UHGV virus genome: UHGV-0361196
Strand: one strand, 5' to 3'
DNA: 39,311 nt
Source of the DNA: a virus
Shown here: one piece after another, positions 1 to 39,311 of the stretch
Numbering within the stretch: the first letter of the stretch is position 1
Layout: the number at the start of each line of letters is the position of its first letter
Made by a program: the position numbers and the translations under genes
Notes under the pieces: model-generated
Database searches by the model: none
What the model saw: the letters and a program-made list of their open reading frames with translations, nothing else
What the model was told of the DNA's origin: nothing

Positions 1-274
1 CGAAACGTCAAAACCGCGGCTCCCGAAACTCAACGGGTGATGTTCTTTAAAAATCAGGATTTATTTCAGGCTCCGGCAATACGCATTTATGTGTTCTGTC
101 AGTCATCCGGCTGGCAGGTAATGAAAACGCAGGAACAGAAGGAGGAAAACACCGGAAAGCGTCAGATGCAGATATGAAAAAAAGCAGGTCAGGGACCTGC
201 TTAATCCACGCCGTAAGAATTGTGCGACCAATTTTGACGGCATTGTTAACCAATTTGTCATAAGGAATCCATTT

Positions 275-505
275 ATGACTGTAAGCATTGTTTCACCTTC
301 CGCAGCGGCTGTAAAGCCCCGCCGTCATCCCCGTTTCAGACGCGAAGACATCCCCGCGCCGGAACTTGACCCCGTGCTGAAAGCCTTCGGGCGACACATT
401 GCCCGGAGTTTTCGCCGGGGGCGTGGTGTACACATCCCCGCCATGAAAAACACGGCCTTCGGGCAGGTGCTCCGCACACTCGAACTGAAACGCGCTTTTA
501 ACTGA
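275..505 (+). CDS. hypothetical small basic protein (76 aa), flanking replicon
   Basis: ORF with AGGA about 10 nt upstream of the ATG; Arg-rich; no recognisable motif; weak call. Confidence 0.3.
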   Translation: MTVSIVSPSAAAVKPRRHPRFRREDIPAPELDPVLKAFGRHIARSFRRGRGVHIPAMKNTAFGQVLRTLELKRAFN

Positions 506-556
506 TGAGGTGAGCCGCCCCGCGAGGGGCGGCAACAGACGGAAGGAGAACATTTT

Positions 557-1918
557 ATGACATTAGCAGCAATCACCATGACCGCCCCGGAAGCCGCCAG
601 CCCTGTGCAGATGTACCGCGCGACCTACTCACCGGATGACAACAAACTGCGCCTGTATGCCGTGTCACGTCTTGACCCGGAGACGTATAAAAAAGTGCAT
701 GATGCCGGTTTCCGCTGGGCACCAAAACAGGCGCTGTTTGTCGCGCCAGCCTGGACACCGGGCCGGGAAGACGTGCTCCTCTCACTTGCCGGAGAGATTG
801 AGGATGAAGACAGCACGCTCGCTGAACGTCAGGAAGCACGGGCGGAGCGGTTTACCGGATACAGCGGAAAGCGGGCCAGTGAATCCGCACAGGCACTTGA
901 TGAAGTGGAAAGACTGGCCGCGATGATCCCGCCCGGTCAGCCCATTCTTGTGGGGCATCACAGCGAACGCCGCGCCCGTCGTGATGCGCAGCGTATTGAA
1001 AACGGCATGAAACGTGCCGTGATGCTCTTTGAACGTGCGGAATACTGGGAAGAACGTGCGCGGTCGGCACTGCTTCACGCGAAGTATAAAGAACGTCCGG
1101 ACGTTCGCTGGCGTCGTATCAAAAAAATCGAAGCTGATTTGCGCAAGGCTGAAAAGACCATCGCGCAGTCGCAGAAATATCTGACGATGTGGCGGGCTGA
1201 ATCGCTGGATCTGAATATGGCAAAACTCATCAGCAGTCATGACCATATCAGCGCCTGTTTCCCGCTGGATACGTATCCGCGCCCGGCAGAAAAAAGCCAG
1301 TATGAAGGAAGTCGATCGTTATGGTCGGCCCTGGATGATGACATCATCACCACGGAGCAGGCCCGCGAAATTGCGATCCGCTGTCATGAACGGCAGATTC
1401 AGCATCAACAACGCTGGGTTAACCACTATCAGAACCGCCTGATCTATGAGCGTGCCATGCTGGACGAAAGCGGCGGCGTGGTTACCCGGACACAGGATTT
1501 TGAGCCGGGCGGACAGGTTTTCAGCCGGGGCGAGTGGCTGACCATCATCCGCGTGAACAAAAGCAACGGGGCGGTGAGTTCAGTCACAACGCCGAATTAC
1601 AGTTTTCTCGGGTACAGCGGCACGATGAAAGTGACGCCCGATCGCATCACGGACTACAAAGCACCATCGGCAGAAGAGGCTGCCGTCGCCAGTCAGGCCG
1701 CGAAGCGTCCGCCGGTAGTCAACTATCCGGGGGAAGGTTTCCGGGAAATGACAAAGGCACAGTGGGCCGCCCTGCCCCGGGACTGTAAGGCCGTGCGCAG
1801 TGTGGCAGAGACAGAAGACCACGGGGCATACCGCTACCGCCGCACAATGGACAATAATTTCCGCCTGGTGAATGTGTATATCACCGACATGAAAATCACG
1901 GAAATCCCGCAGAAATAA
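557..1918 (+). CDS. hypothetical protein (453 aa), flanking replicon
   Basis: Long ORF with RBS GGAAGGAG 8 nt upstream of ATG 557; charged Arg/Glu-rich central region; no catalytic motif recognised; immediately upstream of the orphan methyltransferase. Confidence 0.7.
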   Translation: MTLAAITMTAPEAASPVQMYRATYSPDDNKLRLYAVSRLDPETYKKVHDAGFRWAPKQALFVAPAWTPGREDVLLSLAGEIEDEDSTLAERQEARAERFTGYSGKRASESAQALDEVERLAAMIPPGQPILVGHHSERRARRDAQRIENGMKRAVMLFERAEYWEERARSALLHAKYKERPDVRWRRIKKIEADLRKAEKTIAQSQKYLTMWRAESLDLNMAKLISSHDHISACFPLDTYPRPAEKSQYEGSRSLWSALDDDIITTEQAREIAIRCHERQIQHQQRWVNHYQNRLIYERAMLDESGGVVTRTQDFEPGGQVFSRGEWLTIIRVNKSNGAVSSVTTPNYSFLGYSGTMKVTPDRITDYKAPSAEEAAVASQAAKRPPVVNYPGEGFREMTKAQWAALPRDCKAVRSVAETEDHGAYRYRRTMDNNFRLVNVYITDMKITEIPQK

Positions 1919-1964
1919 GGTATATCCCCCCGGGAAATCCCCGGGGGATGACGGAGATAATGAT

Positions 1965-2528
1965 ATGCACAGTCAGTTAAAAGAACGTATCCGGCTGATG
2001 CGCGCAAGGCTGGATAACGCCGCGCCGGTTGCTGAAATCCGGGCTGAATCTCAGCTTTTTGTGACTCCTGCCCCGGTCTGTGATCGCCTGGTGATGCTGG
2101 CGGAGATCAGCAACCGTGATCACATTCTGGAACCCTCTGCCGGCACCGGGGCCATACTGCGGGCGATTCGTCATGTCGCGCCGGGGGCCATGTGTGATGC
2201 GGTGGAGATTAACAGCGGGCTGGTCCGGTATCTGCGGGATAATTTTAACGGTGTCAGGGTTCAGTGTGGCGACTTCATGGAATGGCAGCCGGTGCAGTAT
2301 TACAGCCGGGTTATCATGAATCCGCCGTTCAGCCACGGGCAGGATATCCGGCATATCCTGCGGGCCTTTTCCCTGTTGCGTCCGGGTGGCGTGCTGGTCG
2401 CCGTCTGTCTCAACGGACCACGCCAGCAGGAGAAGCTGTTACCGTTTTCTGACGTCCGCGAGGAGCTGCCGCGCGGCACGTTTGCTTATACCGATGTCCC
2501 GACGATGATTATTCGTCTGCGTGCCTGA
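1965..2528 (+). CDS. SAM-dependent DNA N6-adenine methyltransferase, orphan (no adjacent endonuclease)
   Basis: SAM-binding motif EPSAGTGA (aa 56-63) followed by catalytic NPPF (aa 119-122), the motif order of gamma-class amino-methyltransferases; RBS GGAG upstream. Confidence 0.7.
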   Translation: MHSQLKERIRLMRARLDNAAPVAEIRAESQLFVTPAPVCDRLVMLAEISNRDHILEPSAGTGAILRAIRHVAPGAMCDAVEINSGLVRYLRDNFNGVRVQCGDFMEWQPVQYYSRVIMNPPFSHGQDIRHILRAFSLLRPGGVLVAVCLNGPRQQEKLLPFSDVREELPRGTFAYTDVPTMIIRLRA

Positions 2529-2599
2529 TGACACAGGGCCGGCGGGAGGATAAATGCCTGTCTGCCCGCGCCGGGAAAAAACGCGCGCCGGTGGCGCTG

Positions 2600-2632
2600 A
2601 AAGGGGCCGCGCTCACGCGCCGCCCCTTTCAT
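2600..2632 (+). terminator. candidate intrinsic terminator downstream of methyltransferase gene
   Basis: 12-bp GC-rich stem (AAAGGGGCCGCGC / GCGCCGCCCCTTT, one mismatch) with loop TCAC, followed by TTTCATT. Confidence 0.45.
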
Positions 2633-2694
2633 TACGCGGACGTTCTGATGGGGGCTTCTGTTTCTTCATGCCTGTCATTTGTCTGTTACTTATA

Positions 2695-6992: not shown

Positions 6993-7220
6993 ATGATGTC
7001 ACGAAATATAAAAATGGCAACGGATGCGCAGAACTGGTTACAGGCGCGCGGGAGTCATGTAAATGAATCATATCTCGGCGTGGCGCGTCCGATTCTTGAA
7101 ATCACTTACCCACCGGTGGAACTGGTAAAAAACGCGGTCAGAATTATGGAGCATAAGTCCGGGGTGGCCCGTTCTGTATGGACGGCCCGTCTTAATGGTT
7201 GCCAGATTATCTGGAGATAA
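6993..7220 (+). CDS. hypothetical early protein (75 aa), positional equivalent of Mu kil
   Basis: First ORF after B; function not established from sequence. Confidence 0.5.
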
Positions 7221-7222
7221 CG

Positions 7223-7444
7223 ATGTGTATTAAAGCTGAAAAATATATTGAATGGGTTAAACACTGTCAGTGCCACGGGGTGCCGCTGACGACATATAAA
7301 TGCCCAGGATGCGGTGAACAGATTATGACGCAATGCTCACCCGAAAAGGAAATTCGGGATTCCCTGACATGTTGTCCGTGGTGCAGCGCAGTTTTCTTTA
7401 AGCAGGTAAAAGGCGCGAAGGTAAAAGCCAGCGCAGTTATTTAG
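7223..7444 (+). CDS. small zinc-ribbon protein (about 73 aa)
   Basis: Cys pairs CQCHG, CPGCG and CCPWC; RBS GGAGA about 10 nt upstream of ATG 7223; the track ORF from 7199 is an in-frame 5' extension. Confidence 0.5.
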   Translation: MCIKAEKYIEWVKHCQCHGVPLTTYKCPGCGEQIMTQCSPEKEIRDSLTCCPWCSAVFFKQVKGAKVKASAVI

Positions 7445-7754: not shown

Positions 7755-8174
7755 ATGAACGTCAAAATCCGAAATGAAATTCAGGCATTAATTCGAATTA
7801 AAATGCGTAATAACAATCCAGGAGAATTACGCGAGTTTATTTTCACCCGCAAAGTTTATGAGCATGGTGAAACTACTTATCTGATTACATTTGACCATTA
7901 CAGCATTTGTGCGCGTTATTGTGGCGAAAACATCTCTAATGCCATCACGTTTGGCGGTGCGTTTAACGAGGATTTATGGGAATACGTCATGGACCGCGAA
8001 TACATCTGCGCATCAGACCCTGAAGCCCGTGAAATGTGGCAGCGTATCTGGCGCGATTACCGGTTAATGGCAAAAGGCTGGGCGCGCTGCTGTTATTCCT
8101 CGCTTGCCCTGAAAGCGGTTCAGTTATCGCTGCGGCATATTCCGGCATCACTGCACGAGCCTCTGCTGTACTGA
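7755..8174 (+). CDS. hypothetical early protein (139 aa)
   Basis: RBS AAGGAA upstream of ATG; no motif recognised. Confidence 0.55.
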   Translation: MNVKIRNEIQALIRIKMRNNNPGELREFIFTRKVYEHGETTYLITFDHYSICARYCGENISNAITFGGAFNEDLWEYVMDREYICASDPEAREMWQRIWRDYRLMAKGWARCCYSSLALKAVQLSLRHIPASLHEPLLY

Positions 8175-8474
8175 ATGGTGACTGACATGAAGTGTAATCG
8201 TAAGCGCTGGTCACGCGAAGACCGGGAATTTATCGAAGCCAGCGTCGGGAAAATGACCATTGAAGAAATGGCGGAAAAACTGAACGTTGCCACAACCGCC
8301 CTCCGGGCACATGCCAGAAGGCACGGAATATCGTTGTGTGCATACCGGGTCAGTGAGCACGACAAATATTTGTGTCGTGAACTTTATAAAGAAGGACTGG
8401 ATATTCATGTCATTGCCCGAAAGATGGAATTAAGCAATCGAGCTGTATCCAGCATTGTATACAGCGGATATTAA
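8175..8474 (+). CDS. hypothetical early protein with HTH-like segments (99 aa)
   Basis: Two helix-turn-helix-like stretches (TIEEMAEKLNVATTALRAHARRHGI and LDIHVIARKMELSNRAVSSIV); start could instead be ATG 8187. Confidence 0.5.
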   Translation: MVTDMKCNRKRWSREDREFIEASVGKMTIEEMAEKLNVATTALRAHARRHGISLCAYRVSEHDKYLCRELYKEGLDIHVIARKMELSNRAVSSIVYSGY

Positions 8475-8493: not shown

Positions 8494-9018
8494 ATGGCTA
8501 AACCAGCAAAACGTATCAAAAGTGCCGCAGCGGCTTATGTGCCACAAAACCGCGATGCGGTGATTACCGATATTAAACGCATCGGGGATTTACAGCGCGA
8601 AGCATCACGTCTGGAAACGGAAATGAATGATGCCATCGCGGAAATTACGGAGAAATTTGCAGCCCGGATTGCACCGATTAAAACCGATATTGAAACCCTT
8701 TCAAAAGGCGTTCAGGGATGGTGTGAAGCGAACCGCGACGAACTGACAAACGGCGGCAAAGTGAAGACGGCGAATCTTGTCACCGGTGATGTATCGTGGC
8801 GGGTCCGTCCACCCTCAGTAAGTATTCGTGGTATGGATGCAGTGATGGAAACGCTGGAGCGTCTTGGCCTGCAACGCTTTATTCGCACGAAGCAGGAAAT
8901 CAACAAGGAAGCGATTTTACTGGAACCGAAAGCGGTCGCAGGTGTTGCCGGAATTACTGTTAAATCGGGAATTGAAGATTTTTCCATTATTCCGTTTGAA
9001 CAGGAAGCCGGTATTTAA
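8494..9018 (+). CDS. gam: Gam, host-nuclease inhibitor (DNA end-binding)
   Basis: 174-aa product matches my recollection of phage Mu Gam nearly residue for residue; RBS AGGAG. Confidence 0.9.
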   Translation: MAKPAKRIKSAAAAYVPQNRDAVITDIKRIGDLQREASRLETEMNDAIAEITEKFAARIAPIKTDIETLSKGVQGWCEANRDELTNGGKVKTANLVTGDVSWRVRPPSVSIRGMDAVMETLERLGLQRFIRTKQEINKEAILLEPKAVAGVAGITVKSGIEDFSIIPFEQEAGI

Positions 9019-9115
9019 TACCACCATTAATATTTAATTAATTCACATTCGTTTAATTATGGCGCGATGCGTCAGGGGACTACTCGCGCCTTAATCAGAA
9101 CCGGAGAGAATGAAA

Positions 9116-9664
9116 ATGAAAGCATGTGCTTATTTTAAACTGAGTGACGAAGCCGCTAACGGTTATACGATTCGCTGGCTAAAAGAGGTTTCTGTTAAGC
9201 GTGGTGAGATTATTGAGTCATTACAGCAATCAGTGAAAGCAATCGGTGTGTCTTTGTCTGGTGACAAAGGGCCTGAGAGGGTTACGCATGTCTGGTTTAG
9301 CTACTTACCACCGGAAGGATGGGGGATTAAATCAAGGACACTTTTCATTGGTGATATTCAGTTATGGGGCGCAATGCCGGATATGACAATACCGGCAGGT
9401 CGTGAGTACGGGAAGCTCATCCGGGACTGTGAAAATCAGCTCGAAAAACACCCGGATTTTCAGCGCTGGCTGTGCAATGAACTTAACGTGGCTACCGACG
9501 TTGACCTGTTTGACATCAGGTCCGTGTGGAAAATGCACCACAGCCGTGACGGATTCAGCATTTTGTTTGCAGTGTACCTTCTGGCTGGCGAAGTGAAGGG
9601 ACCGGTTCCCGCCGAATGCCAGCGCATTAAACATTCTGAATTTGTGGCGCTGACGGAGGAATAA
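9116..9664 (+). CDS. hypothetical early protein (about 182 aa)
   Basis: RBS GGAGAG 9 nt upstream of ATG 9116 (track start 9110 is 2 codons upstream); no motif recognised. Confidence 0.55.
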   Translation: MKACAYFKLSDEAANGYTIRWLKEVSVKRGEIIESLQQSVKAIGVSLSGDKGPERVTHVWFSYLPPEGWGIKSRTLFIGDIQLWGAMPDMTIPAGREYGKLIRDCENQLEKHPDFQRWLCNELNVATDVDLFDIRSVWKMHHSRDGFSILFAVYLLAGEVKGPVPAECQRIKHSEFVALTEE

Positions 9665-9667
9665 CCG

Positions 9668-10207
9668 GTGATTGATGCAAAAGTTCTGAATGGTGTCAGC
9701 ACATTATTACGGGCTTACGGGCGTCTGACCTGCGGGGTTCTGGCTGAAAAAATGAAGATGCTGCCCTCGTCAATGGTTTATTTCCTGCGTGATGCGGTTG
9801 ATGCAGGTGTGCTCACCGAATGCAACGGATTTTATGACGTTCCGCGCCCGCGTCCGACGCTGCCTGTAAGACGAAACGCAACTGAGCAGCCTGCTGTTGA
9901 TGATGCGGTGTGGTGCAACTGGCGTCGCTCATTACCCTGGGTGGAAGGTAATACCATCCCCGCTCTGGCAAAAGAGTTTGCAACGGGCGTGCTGACCTGT
10001 GAATCCGTTCACATCGTTGCAGAAGTGGATAACAGGATGTGCGAACAGGGAATGCCCCGTTTTGTGATGGCTTATATCGATATCCGGCTGGGGCGGTTTA
10101 TTTGCAGTTCAAGCGCCTGGAATATCACCGACCATGTACTGCGTTATCTCATCATTGATTTTTCATCAGCACCGGGTGTGGTGCAGGAGGCTGGTTGTGA
10201 AATTTGA
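9668..10207 (+). CDS. hypothetical early protein (179 aa), possible winged-helix N-terminus
   Basis: GTG start with GGAGG upstream; N-terminal helix-rich segment. Confidence 0.5.
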   Translation: MIDAKVLNGVSTLLRAYGRLTCGVLAEKMKMLPSSMVYFLRDAVDAGVLTECNGFYDVPRPRPTLPVRRNATEQPAVDDAVWCNWRRSLPWVEGNTIPALAKEFATGVLTCESVHIVAEVDNRMCEQGMPRFVMAYIDIRLGRFICSSSAWNITDHVLRYLIIDFSSAPGVVQEAGCEI

Positions 10208-10892
10208 AGACTGGGGTATTGATAAAAGTTGTGGCCGGGACGTCCTGGTGTACAAAAACTGTAGCGTGATTGAAGGAGAAGATGCCTGGCAGGTTCTGGA
10301 TATACTTCGTTCTGCTTTATGCAGAGCTGGCTATGTTACGCCAGCGTCAGTTAATGGCGGAACTGCCACTACCTGTATCAGAAATCAACTTTATAGTTTT
10401 TATACAGCCTACAACCGATGGTTAAAGAATGGGGCAATGGAGACGGGCGATGATGTATTTACCCGGGCTGCCGGATTATGTGCCAATGCTTACGATTATT
10501 TTGAATCAATCGGAGCAGACAGCGAGGCTGCGCTAGAACAATTACATGCGGATTTTGTCGCGAGTGGGCTGGATGAATCCCTGCCATTTAATGTAGATAA
10601 CGTGCACTACCATGATGAATGCCTACATGACAGATGCCACCTGAATTCAGCACGTGTGGCATGGGTTGAAAAACACTGTATTAGTTCTGATTCAGAAATA
10701 ACGGGGAAAAAGACAGTCGGTGAAAATTCGTATTCGTGGCTGGGGAAATTTACCACGGTGAAACAGGAATGCCCGACCTGCGGTAATGAAAACCCTGAAT
10801 ATCTGAAAGAGTGCCCTCATTGTGGCGGGCAGAAATGCAACCACTGCGATATGGGCGATGACACAGCGTGCATGAATTGTGAAGGTGAGTGA
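10197..10892 (+). CDS. Cys-rich protein with C-terminal tandem zinc-ribbon motifs (about 231 aa)
   Basis: Four CxxC motifs in the last 40 aa (CPTCG, CPHCG, CNHCD, CMNCE) plus a His/Cys cluster HYHDECLHDRCH; GTG 10197 preceded by GGAGG at 7 nt is preferred over the overlapping ATG at 10134. Confidence 0.5.
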   Translation: MKFEDWGIDKSCGRDVLVYKNCSVIEGEDAWQVLDILRSALCRAGYVTPASVNGGTATTCIRNQLYSFYTAYNRWLKNGAMETGDDVFTRAAGLCANAYDYFESIGADSEAALEQLHADFVASGLDESLPFNVDNVHYHDECLHDRCHLNSARVAWVEKHCISSDSEITGKKTVGENSYSWLGKFTTVKQECPTCGNENPEYLKECPHCGGQKCNHCDMGDDTACMNCEGE

Positions 10893-10893
10893 T

Positions 10894-11202
10894 ATGAATA
10901 ATGGTGTATTTTCAAAATCAGAAGAGCTTGCCGCCCTGCTGATTGCCGGTGGTTTGCCGAAAAAAGAAGTGCATGACTTTGTGAATTTTGTATATAACCC
11001 GTCTCATGAAAAAGCTATTGATGAGGTCATGGCGTACCGGTTTGGCATTATTGCTGAGTCACTGAGTCCTCACTGGATTATTGAAAATCTCCGCACTATT
11101 GCTGATGGCAAAGATAAATCAGCAGCCGTTGCTGCATTGGATGTGTTACGGCAAATGAGTCTGAAATTTTATCCTGAATTTATTCTGAGGGCCGCAAAAT
11201 GA
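10894..11202 (+). CDS. hypothetical early protein (102 aa)
   Basis: ATG 10894 with AGGTGA upstream, directly after the stop of the upstream gene. Confidence 0.5.
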   Translation: MNNGVFSKSEELAALLIAGGLPKKEVHDFVNFVYNPSHEKAIDEVMAYRFGIIAESLSPHWIIENLRTIADGKDKSAAVAALDVLRQMSLKFYPEFILRAAK

Positions 11203-11501
11203 ACAATGAAGATAAATTTACTCCCCTTAATATTGATAACGTCATGGCTGAAAAAAGGATGCTGGAACGTGTTCGCGCTATCGTTGAATATGGTATTAAG
11301 CATGAACTCACCGCCAGAGAAGTCCGTGACATTATCAACCGCGAAATGAATCGTCTGGAAACAGTAGTGGCACTGCAAAATGAAACAGCCCGCGAGGAGT
11401 ACATCCGCCGCAGGCTGGGGTTATCAGACCAGGATATTGTTACTGACGCTCATGTGTTTGAGGCTTTTGAGATCCGTCAGCATCTGGGCCTTACGAACTG
11501 A
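11199..11501 (+). CDS. hypothetical early protein (100 aa)
   Basis: ATGA start/stop overlap with upstream gene; charged helical product. Confidence 0.5.
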   Translation: MNNEDKFTPLNIDNVMAEKRMLERVRAIVEYGIKHELTAREVRDIINREMNRLETVVALQNETAREEYIRRRLGLSDQDIVTDAHVFEAFEIRQHLGLTN

Positions 11502-11552
11502 TGTGTAAATTCAGGCGGTGTTGCAGCACCGCCTCTTTCCGGAGGTACGATC

Positions 11553-12104
11553 ATGAGCCGCACATCCCTGATTAAATTAATCCATGTCGCCCGTCGGGAG
11601 CTACAACTCGACGACGACACTTACCGCGCCTTTCTGATGCAGAAAACGGGCAAAACCAGTTGCCGCGAGCTGACGGTAACGCAACTGGAACAGGTGCTCG
11701 ATGCCATGAAAGAACGCGGCTTTAAGAAGCTGATTAAACATCCACGTCGCCGCTTTAAGGGGTATGTCACGCCCCGCGAGAAGGTGTATAAAATCTGGCA
11801 GCAGATGGCAGAAGACGGTTTTATTACCGATGGCGGTGATGTGGCGCTGGACAGATATGTTCAACGCCTGACCACGAAACGTAATGGCGGACAGGGTGTT
11901 TCCACGCTGGCGTGGTGTCATGGCGACACCCTGTTGATTGTTCTCGAAACTCTCAAGCAGTGGCATATCCGCTGTATTCGTGAAGCCTTTTCCCGTCACG
12001 GGCTTCCGTTGCCGGTCAGTCCGTCCGGGCGTGAACTGCGCGGCTATGATGCCATGACGGCGGCTTATGCCCATGCCAGAAAGACACGGAGGATGGCACA
12101 ATGA
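11553..12104 (+). CDS. gemA: GemA-like early protein (Mu gp16 family)
   Basis: 183 aa beginning MSRTSLIKLIHVARRELQLDDDTYRAF, which I recognise as the Mu GemA family; sits immediately upstream of mor as in Mu; RBS GGAGG. Confidence 0.75.
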   Translation: MSRTSLIKLIHVARRELQLDDDTYRAFLMQKTGKTSCRELTVTQLEQVLDAMKERGFKKLIKHPRRRFKGYVTPREKVYKIWQQMAEDGFITDGGDVALDRYVQRLTTKRNGGQGVSTLAWCHGDTLLIVLETLKQWHIRCIREAFSRHGLPLPVSPSGRELRGYDAMTAAYAHARKTRRMAQ

Positions 12105-39190: not shown

Positions 39191-39268
39191 TATCAAATAA
39201 TTTTTCGTTGTGCCGTTTTGGGTGGTATCAAAAAAAATTCAAAACGGTATCAAATGATTTTGCGCGCT
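39186..39268. repeat. right end (attR-like) with three putative transposase-binding repeats
   Basis: GTATCAAA at 39190..39197, 39225..39232 and 39247..39254, the reverse complement of the left-end TTTGATAC motif; the outermost 14-mer AAATCATTTGATAC is shared by both ends in inverted orientation. Confidence 0.6.
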
Positions 39269-39278
39269 TTATACTGAT

Positions 39279-39311
39279 GTTGTTGTTCCTGCTACTGCTA
39301 CTGCTACTGCT
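39279..39311. repeat. short microsatellite in right flank
   Basis: (GTT)3 at 39279..39287 followed by (GCTACT)3 at 39291..39308, running to the window edge. Confidence 0.5.

Follow-up and report, generated by a model that had tools for sequence, protein, structure and literature searches.

The semi-essential early region of Mu-like phages is described as a set of poorly conserved small genes whose function is uncharacterized (PMC8705779; PMC4553209). The question raised by UHGV virus genome UHGV-0361196, which carries a Mu-like (Muvirus) prophage, is what occupies the part of this region between gam and gemA and what the encoded proteins might do. The stretch of DNA that was analyzed, referred to here as the window, is 39,311 nucleotides (nt) long, and five open reading frames (ORF1 to ORF5) of 182, 179, 231, 102, and 100 amino acids (aa), all on the plus strand, lie between the two genes (Table 1). 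An earlier interpretation of the letters alone (the sequence-only reading) had taken them for a cluster of accessory genes in the gam-gemA gap, and the matches of the flanking genes to PF07352 and PF06252 agree with that description. The comparisons below indicate that the interval is a slot in which small cassettes are exchanged between fixed anchors and that ORF3 is a fusion of a domain related to N4 gp3 with the zinc ribbon of Mu gp13. It is this domain and its fusion to the ribbon that are worth carrying forward.

Coding evidence for the five ORFs

Judged by their conservation, ORF1 to ORF5 are real coding genes under purifying selection, because all five matched PHROG families (E values from 1e-38 to 1e-154; families of unknown function) and because the ratio of nonsynonymous to synonymous substitution rates (dN/dS) was below 1 in comparisons with the copies in SfMu, vB_YpM_3, and Mu (0.12 to 0.73, versus 0.05 to 0.10 for gam). 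The overlapping or abutting stops and starts noted earlier were confirmed: the first and third junctions have gaps of 3 nt and 1 nt, and the second and fourth have overlaps of 11 nt and 4 nt (ATGA). Shine-Dalgarno-like motifs precede four of the five starts, with none obvious for ORF5. Public gene calls gave the order transposase A, B, kil, gam, the five ORFs, gemA, and mor. The block from gam to gemA is probably cotranscribed early, after induction or infection and presumably from the Pe promoter, a timing that we infer from the biology of Mu. Two promoter-like sites were found within the block compared to 5.8 expected, so there was no excess of such sites, which together with the coupled stops and starts gives indirect evidence of early transcription from upstream. 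An Rfam scan gave no match in the ORF1-ORF5 region. As part of a Mu-like early region the cluster is typical, being already catalogued in PHROG and Pfam yet uncharacterized.

The gam-gemA interval as a slot for swappable cassettes

Comparison at the DNA level revealed that the block is a mosaic with respect to Mu, the Shigella phage SfMu, and the Yersinia Mu-like phage vB_YpM_3. The counterparts in Mu are gp11 to gp14 (formerly E10 to E15), which have the same flanks, order, strand, and packing as the genes here. At the aa level, identity to the Mu protein is 94% for ORF2 (gp11) and 97% for ORF5 (gp14). However, Mu gp13 is a free 60-aa Cys-rich protein, whereas here the corresponding sequence (93% identical) is the tail of the 231-aa fusion protein. 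Compared to Mu, the locus adds ORF1 and ORF4 and is without gp12. Also absent is a stretch of approximately 220 bp (Mu positions 7959 to 8177 versus window positions 11502 to 11552) in which Mu has gp15/Mu_54 and, of its annotated semi-early promoter, the upstream 27 nt. The records for Mu gp11 to gp14 are all annotated as hypothetical, and no role for them was found in the sequence records or literature searched. The sequence-only reading had set against its own proposal the case in which all five ORFs match Mu genes with established roles; ORF2, ORF5, and the C terminus of ORF3 do correspond to gp11, gp14, and gp13, but these have no established roles.

SfMu gp11 to gp15 and vB_YpM_3 genes 11 to 15 resemble the locus here in that ORF1-type and ORF4 cassettes are present along with gp11, gp13, and gp14. 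Both differ in lacking the first two modules of ORF3 (modules A and B); at that position, the reading frame of gp12 is broken in SfMu, and almost nothing is present in vB_YpM_3. The 530 bp that encode ORF3 residues 1 to 175 had no match in Mu, SfMu, or vB_YpM_3. ORF1 was 65% identical to the SfMu copy and 85% identical to the vB_YpM_3 copy, although the flanking gam was 94 to 99% identical. For ORF4, aa identity was 96% to the SfMu copy and 78% to the vB_YpM_3 copy.

Two wider sets of loci were compared. The distant set consisted of 47 Mu-like prophages found via Gam; gemA was also detected in 35 of these, with a gap between gam and gemA that ranged from approximately 0.15 to 3.6 kb. ORF1, ORF3, ORF4, and ORF5 were found in none of the 47, and gp11 was found only in Kluyvera. 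The closer set consisted of 80 IMG/VR loci (L068 to L147) found via gp11, of which 58 have both anchors, and these 58 loci had 19 different gene architectures. Occurrence was counted in 50 nonidentical intervals, in which gp11 is present by construction. The families recovered most often were gp12 and the ORF4 family (34 of 50 each), followed by ORF1 (26 of 50) and an unknown family of 177 to 183 aa (cluster c4) that is absent from the window (25 of 50). The free zinc ribbon and gp14 were each present in 16 intervals, and the fusion of modules A and B with the zinc ribbon and the free form of domain B were each present in 3. In none of the 50 did gp12 and domain B occur together. Several smaller recurrent families, of 103 to 135 aa, were also seen in related intervals.

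Individual lineages illustrate the same exchange. P0004, a free 129-aa domain-B protein, occupies the same slot (gam-gp11-B-gemA) in another common Escherichia coli Mu-like lineage, and the interval of E. coli elppa5 has ORF1 and gp11 only. Prophages of the ORF3 type or the free-B type occur in several hundred assemblies. The entire 2.6-kb arrangement of the window was found in 2 of 5426 complete E. coli genomes. By these alignments and counts, the gam-gemA interval is a combinatorial slot for swappable cassettes with fixed anchors, in which gp11 (ORF2) is a near-constant member adjoining gam and ORF1, ORF4, and gp14 (ORF5) are optional. The number of architectures in the closer set and the absence of ORF1, ORF3, ORF4, and ORF5 from the distant set bear out the earlier view of the cluster as the variable part of the early region.

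The left anchor may itself have an alternative. In two further loci (L148, positions 1343 to 1981, and L149, positions 1316 to 1954), a 212-aa DUF3164 protein (PF11363) is in the position of Gam, between small genes on the kil side and DUF5420/gp11/gp12, and DUF3164 may be an alternative occupant of that position.

Anti-CRISPR loci of the JBD30 type in Pseudomonas Mu-like phages are located in the late region, with an aca regulator gene. The concept shared with the interval studied here is that of a variable slot of small genes with fixed anchors in Mu-like genomes; in Pfam and PHROG scans, none of the five ORFs was related to these loci by sequence.

ORF3 as a three-module chimera

The start of ORF3 at GTG 10197 appears sound: AGGAGG is located 6 nt upstream, phrog_6418 aligns to the protein from residue 1 to residue 231, and the 231-aa call is made in six public assemblies. 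The public assembly collection contains the exact protein in 169 blocks, and the six occurrences inspected all had the same context. An AlphaFold2 model (m93ac37fc79c4; 148 sequences) with a mean predicted local distance difference test (pLDDT) score of 79.6 consists of three modules separated by low-confidence linkers. ORF3 is strongly acidic (net charge, -17; isoelectric point, 4.75), with -11 in module B and -6 in the ribbon, which argues against DNA binding.

Module C, the C-terminal module, matched Mu gp13 with an E value of 6e-39 and phrog_5584 with an E value of 1.9e-39. The sequence-only reading had pointed to four CxxC motifs at the end of the protein, and these were found at residues 192 to 195, 206 to 209, 214 to 217, and 225 to 228, four motifs in 37 residues that make up a tandem (2 x 2 CxxC) module of the zinc-ribbon type. 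The core of the ribbon (residues ∼187 to 228) was modeled with pLDDT values of 82 to 87. Its Cys pattern, C-x2-C-x10-C-x2-C-x4-C-x2-C-x7-C-x2-C with CDMGDD, suggests that it would bind two zinc ions. The Pfam zinc-ribbon families DZR (PF12773), Zn_Ribbon_1 (PF13240), and DnaJ_CXXCXGXG (PF00684) were all below the gathering threshold, with scores of 14.6 versus 27.3 and 15.6 versus 25 for ORF3 and 18.2 versus 32.7 for Mu gp13. A His/Cys cluster had also been reported ahead of the CxxC motifs. Such a stretch exists at residues 137 to 161, but it is the C-terminal part of the helical domain and is no obvious metal site, because only C147 (69%) and H148 (80%) are conserved in the family.

The ribbon, with all eight Cys residues and CDxGD, was present in 12 proteins of 53 to 316 aa (11 cluster representatives and the close relative P0001), in each case 3 to 12 residues from the C terminus. 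Because the N termini of these proteins differ, the gp13 ribbon is, as far as these sequences indicate, a portable unit placed at the C terminus behind a varying set of N-terminal partners. No in-frame start codon was found ahead of the ribbon within ORF3; thus, ORF3 appears to be a true in-frame fusion.

Module A is also shared. It opens P0053 (112 aa) and P0061 (64 aa) and is internal in the Serratia and Pseudomonas proteins P0007 and P0008. P0053, in which module A is joined to other sequence, occupies the gp13 slot of a Mu-like prophage with DUF3164 in place of Gam, and P0006, in which a different N terminus precedes the ribbon, occupies the gp13 slot of a DUF3164-bearing Mu-like prophage. 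A lambdoid Ea22-type label for P0006 to P0008, P0014, and other module-shuffled relatives is not claimed; none had an NCBIfam match, and P0006 had only a subthreshold Pfam match.

Module B contains a recombination tract. When ORF3 was compared with the IMG/VR variant L068, 42 of the 47 nucleotide differences were within nt 301 to 480 of the gene (window positions 10497 to 10676; residues 101 to 160), where the synonymous substitution rate (dS) was 0.78, compared to 0.03 elsewhere. The dN/dS of ORF3 was 0.30 overall and 0.24 within this tract. Domain-B alleles thus recombine, as the divergent tract, in the form found here, matches a free 129-aa domain-B protein of Salmonella (P0002). Remote homology between Mu gp12 and domain B, despite the slot they have in common, was considered and rejected; BLASTP gave nothing, and the hhalign probability was 0.8%.

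Domain B and its relatives in lytic phages

An exhaustive HMMER search recovered 548 cluster representatives at E values of ≤1e-3. Among the best 150 matches, 137 align via residues ∼58 to 169, and most are free-standing proteins of 100 to 110 aa. Residues 55 to 168 of ORF3 are 38% identical to N4 gp3 (E value, 4e-18), and tblastn located relatives in 210 phage genomes, N4-like, T7-like, T1-like, rV5-like, and phAPEC8-like phages among them. Near-invariant positions are F68, Y72, W75, G93-L94-C95, P130-F131, N150, R153, and W156. In approximately 140 diverse sequences, the conserved polar residues were C95 (98%), N97 (81%), N132 (82%), E141 (87%), H148 (80%), N150 (96%), and R153 (99%).

Proteins of the N4 gp3 type (phrog_2510-type; ∼100 aa) are homologous to domain B, with the same conserved positions and a matching predicted fold. 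They differ in being mostly free-standing proteins of ∼100 to 110 aa in lytic phages, whereas here the domain has another module on either side and the phage is temperate and transposable. When the model of domain B was compared with BFVD by Foldseek, template modeling scores of 0.7 to 0.87 (target normalized) were obtained with models of relatives, and all proteins returned were uncharacterized phage proteins. Domain B is without a Pfam model, no relative of solved structure was found, and the literature search gave no paper on N4 gp3. On this evidence, domain B represents a large, widespread phage family that is undescribed.

In podophages the domain-B genes are at the left end: gp3 is the third gene of N4, at 1.2 kb; in N4-like phages the genes are at 0.5 to 3.3 kb, with those of N4-like Achromobacter and Erwinia phages at 2.4 to 3.3 kb; and in T7-like RSB1 and Rhizobium podophages they are at 0.4 to 4.3 kb. 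The left end of N4 enters the cell first and bears early genes (PMC4496689). The rV5-like and phAPEC8-like myophages have three to six copies each.

Members of the family have a mean net charge of -4.6, and 82% are negative. A family-wide DNA-mimic signature, considered in view of the acidity of ORF3, was rejected, as the domain-B family is only mildly acidic.

Possible roles of the encoded proteins

We give about an even chance to the reading that ORF1 to ORF5 are early, dispensable, host-directed accessory proteins. Shortly after the phage is induced or infects a cell, the block would be read within the early transcript, as small, translationally packed genes on the same strand. The products, small and mostly acidic early proteins, would bind and neutralize host defense or DNA metabolism factors and would be needed neither for the transposition of Mu nor for assembly of the virion. 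ORF3 would contact its target through the helical domain, and its zinc ribbon would act as a portable module for protein interaction or stabilization. A host-directed role is favored because gene content varies between anchors that are kept, because domain B is found in the first-expressed regions of lytic phages, and because ORF3 is acidic. Natural relatives without ORF1, ORF3, ORF4, and/or ORF5 exist. An antidefense role for the block is plausible. The narrower proposal that the domain-B family neutralizes one conserved host function, an immune sensor or effector or a DNA repair or replication factor, is possible but doubtful. If it is true, Mu-like prophages would be swapping domain B, welded to a two-zinc ribbon, with gp12 as alternative countermeasures in one slot.

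Several observations weigh against a host-directed role. In Pfam, PHROGs, NCBIfam, and structure searches, no sequence or fold likeness was found to known anti-restriction, anti-CRISPR, nuclease-inhibitor, or sponge proteins, and comparison of ORF1 to ORF5 with families including ArdA, Ocr, KlcA/ArdB, and Gam gave no profile or fold match. The nuclease-inhibitor or anti-restriction activity suggested by the sequence-only reading therefore gained no support. The conserved polar residues of domain B would be as compatible with a small enzyme or a pocket for a ligand as with a binding surface, and the mean charge of its family reflects only moderate acidity. Prophages without some of the cassettes may be defective and hence are weak proof of dispensability. 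Scans of the five proteins against Pfam, NCBIfam, PHROGs, and PADLOC matched only families of unknown function, PDB sequence and profile searches with all of the ORFs gave nothing significant, and no literature on the functions of Mu gp11 to gp14, DUF5420, or N4 gp3 was found. The functional guess of the sequence-only reading nevertheless seems reasonable. A further point against host targets is that classical genetics places the phage-directed phenotypes arm and cim somewhere in the region (PMC4553209).

These phenotypes would fit an alternative in which the proteins tune the cycle of Mu itself, through amplified replication of Mu (arm) or control of immunity (cim), by way of the transposition/replication machinery or the repressor. 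The possible winged helix in the N-terminal domain of ORF2 would fit DNA binding. However, functions that serve the conserved A/B machinery should be conserved alongside it, and ORF1, ORF3, ORF4, and ORF5 are absent from the distant prophages, most of which keep gemA, and are combinatorial even within Muvirus. Domain B is also common to lytic phages that do not transpose (N4, T7-like, T1-like, and rV5-like). We therefore regard a role in the Mu cycle as rather unlikely. Should the proteins prove to regulate the phage itself, the finding amounts simply to a neat annotation of a region already known to vary.

A less probable alternative concerns ORF3 alone. Instead of being a stoichiometric inhibitor, it would act as a small enzyme or bind a ligand or a metal, with the Cys, His, Asn, Glu, and Arg residues of domain B forming an active site or a pocket (one conceivable ligand is a nucleotide signal) and with the ribbon providing stability. 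The seven polar positions that are 80 to 99% conserved are consistent with this, as is P0017, a domain-B relative that also contains a dATP/dGTP pyrophosphohydrolase domain (PF04447) as a fusion partner. Some relatives, of which P0051 is one example, have three tandem copies of domain B, which would also accord with an enzyme or pocket. Even so, we think such an activity improbable.

Variable prophage cassettes often encode defense, and the early operon of Mu is shut off by the repressor in lysogens. The first of these facts, together with the location of this prophage in a conjugative plasmid backbone, where such cargo is common, would fit genes that protect the lysogen by prophage defense or superinfection exclusion. 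The second argues against it, as the genes are codirectional within the early operon that, from Mu biology, the repressor silences. In addition, no PADLOC-DB model was matched by any of the five ORFs, the block has no excess of promoter-like sites, and relatives of domain B are found in strictly lytic phages. Protection of the lysogen is thus very improbable, and superinfection exclusion, for which no promoter signal of its own was seen, is the least likely of the options that the sequence-only reading had offered.

The idea that at least some of these reading frames are in decay or have no meaning can be given almost no weight, since an 11-bp insertion in ORF4 of a 99.2%-identical relative, the broken gp12 of SfMu, and the high dN/dS of ORF4 are outweighed by the five PHROG families, dN/dS values below 1 throughout, Shine-Dalgarno-like motifs at four of five starts, coupled stops and starts, the confident model of domain B (pLDDT, 94 to 98), and the wide recurrence of the exact ORF3 protein.

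For host-directed accessory proteins, the reading preferred here, the locus offers concrete candidates. For decades, the early accessory genes of Mu-like phages have simply been set down as small and of unknown function, and ORF3 links Mu to a widespread, uncharacterized family of early proteins in lytic phages that includes N4 gp3. Domain B, gp12 as the alternative in the same slot, the gp13 ribbon, and ORF1 form a short list for antidefense and host-takeover screens, for which both Mu and N4 are genetically tractable.

ORF1 and ORF2

An alternative ATG for ORF1 at position 9110 would give a protein of 184 aa, and either start is used by gene callers in other assemblies. ORF1 had no Pfam match; the PF17457 (DUF5420) hidden Markov model gave none at an E value of ≤0.1, nor did it match the copies in SfMu and elppa5, which carry a DUF5420 label in RefSeq. 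A full-length alignment of ORF1 was obtained with a PF17457-matching protein at the same position in L149 (25% identity; E value, 2e-10), and the dN/dS of ORF1 was 0.40 to 0.44. These comparisons suggest that ORF1 is a divergent, fast-changing, distant relative of DUF5420-type proteins.

Residues 90 to 166 of ORF2 matched Gp11_C with a score of 134.6 bits, compared to a gathering threshold of 27. The protein is predicted to consist of a three-helix N-terminal domain, a disordered linker, and the beta-rich Gp11_C domain; the N-terminal domain may be a winged helix.

ORF4, ORF5, and the spacer before gemA

The dN/dS of ORF4 was as high as 0.73, a value obtained over very short divergence. Loss of reading frame in close relatives, which the sequence-only reading had named as a sign against its proposal, was seen once: in E. 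coli JCKP02 (L051, the 99.2%-identical prophage), the insertion shifts the frame of ORF4 at position 10947, and RefSeq calls a 77-aa remnant. Either a genuine mutation or a fault in the assembly could account for this. When the ORF4 and gp14 (ORF5) family alignments were compared by hhalign, the probability was 62% (E value, 7e-5; 62 columns), and pairwise BLASTP of ORF4 and ORF5 gave no match. The profile comparison is a hint that ORF4 and ORF5 might be old paralogues.

The hairpin in the spacer between ORF5 and gemA had a z score of -2.1 relative to shuffled sequences and is within DNA common to the annotated semi-early promoter region of Mu. Expression of gemA may be wired differently here than in Mu.

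TABLE 1 Features of the gam-gemA interval (window coordinates)
Feature	Position	Strand	Assignment and evidence
gam (Mu gp10), left anchor	8494..9018	+	PF07352, E value 4e-42; 100% aa identity to Mu Gam
ORF1, 182 aa	9116..9664	+	Probable divergent DUF5420-like cassette; phrog_2260, E value 1.4e-38
ORF2, 179 aa, GTG start	9668..10207	+	Mu gp11 orthologue; PF25754 Gp11_C
ORF3, 231 aa, GTG start	10197..10892	+	Three-module chimera in Mu gp12 and gp13 slots; phrog_6418, E value 2.6e-154
ORF3 module A, residues 1-50	10197..10346	+	Two short strands and a helix (predicted); pLDDT 60-73
ORF3 module B, residues 55-168	10359..10700	+	Five-helix N4-gp3-like domain (predicted); in the slot of Mu gp12
ORF3 module C, residues 176-231	10722..10892	+	Mu gp13 zinc ribbon, 4 x CxxC and CDMGDD
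ORF4, 102 aa	10894..11202	+	Cassette not in Mu; phrog_1988, E value 1e-48
ORF5, 100 aa	11199..11501	+	Mu gp14 orthologue; phrog_6075, E value 2e-53
Hairpin in 51-nt ORF5-gemA spacer	11513..11534	+	9-bp stem, 4-nt loop, then CUUUCC; -16 kcal/mol
gemA (Mu gp16), right anchor	11553..12104	+	PF06252, E value 3e-30

Setting of the prophage

Upstream of gam, at positions 7199 to 7444, is an 81-aa Cys-rich early ORF with the motifs CQCH, CPGC, CC, and CS; related loci have Phage_Mu_gp6 (PF26833) there.

The left flank of the prophage (window positions 1 to 2693) matches the leading region of F-like conjugative plasmids at 98.6 to 99%, and 6862 of the 6931 matching places are on plasmids. It encodes a DUF3560 protein and a methyltransferase, with ssb adjoining in relatives, and Rfam identified the plasmid antisense RNA AS-pc01 at positions 179 to 280 on the minus strand. 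Because the left flank matches a plasmid leading region, the prophage is considered to be in a plasmid backbone, not a chromosome.

The ends of the prophage appear, at approximate coordinates, as the inverted sequences AAATCATTTGATAC (left; ∼2694 to 2715) and GTATCAAATGATTT (right; ∼39249 to 39262), and these differ from the TGTATTGATTCAC-type ends of Mu. Seven bases, agagagg (2694 to 2700), are located between the end of the plasmid homology and the left repeat. In the right flank, a short hexanucleotide tandem repeat, (TGCTAC)n, at positions 39290 to 39311 closes the window.

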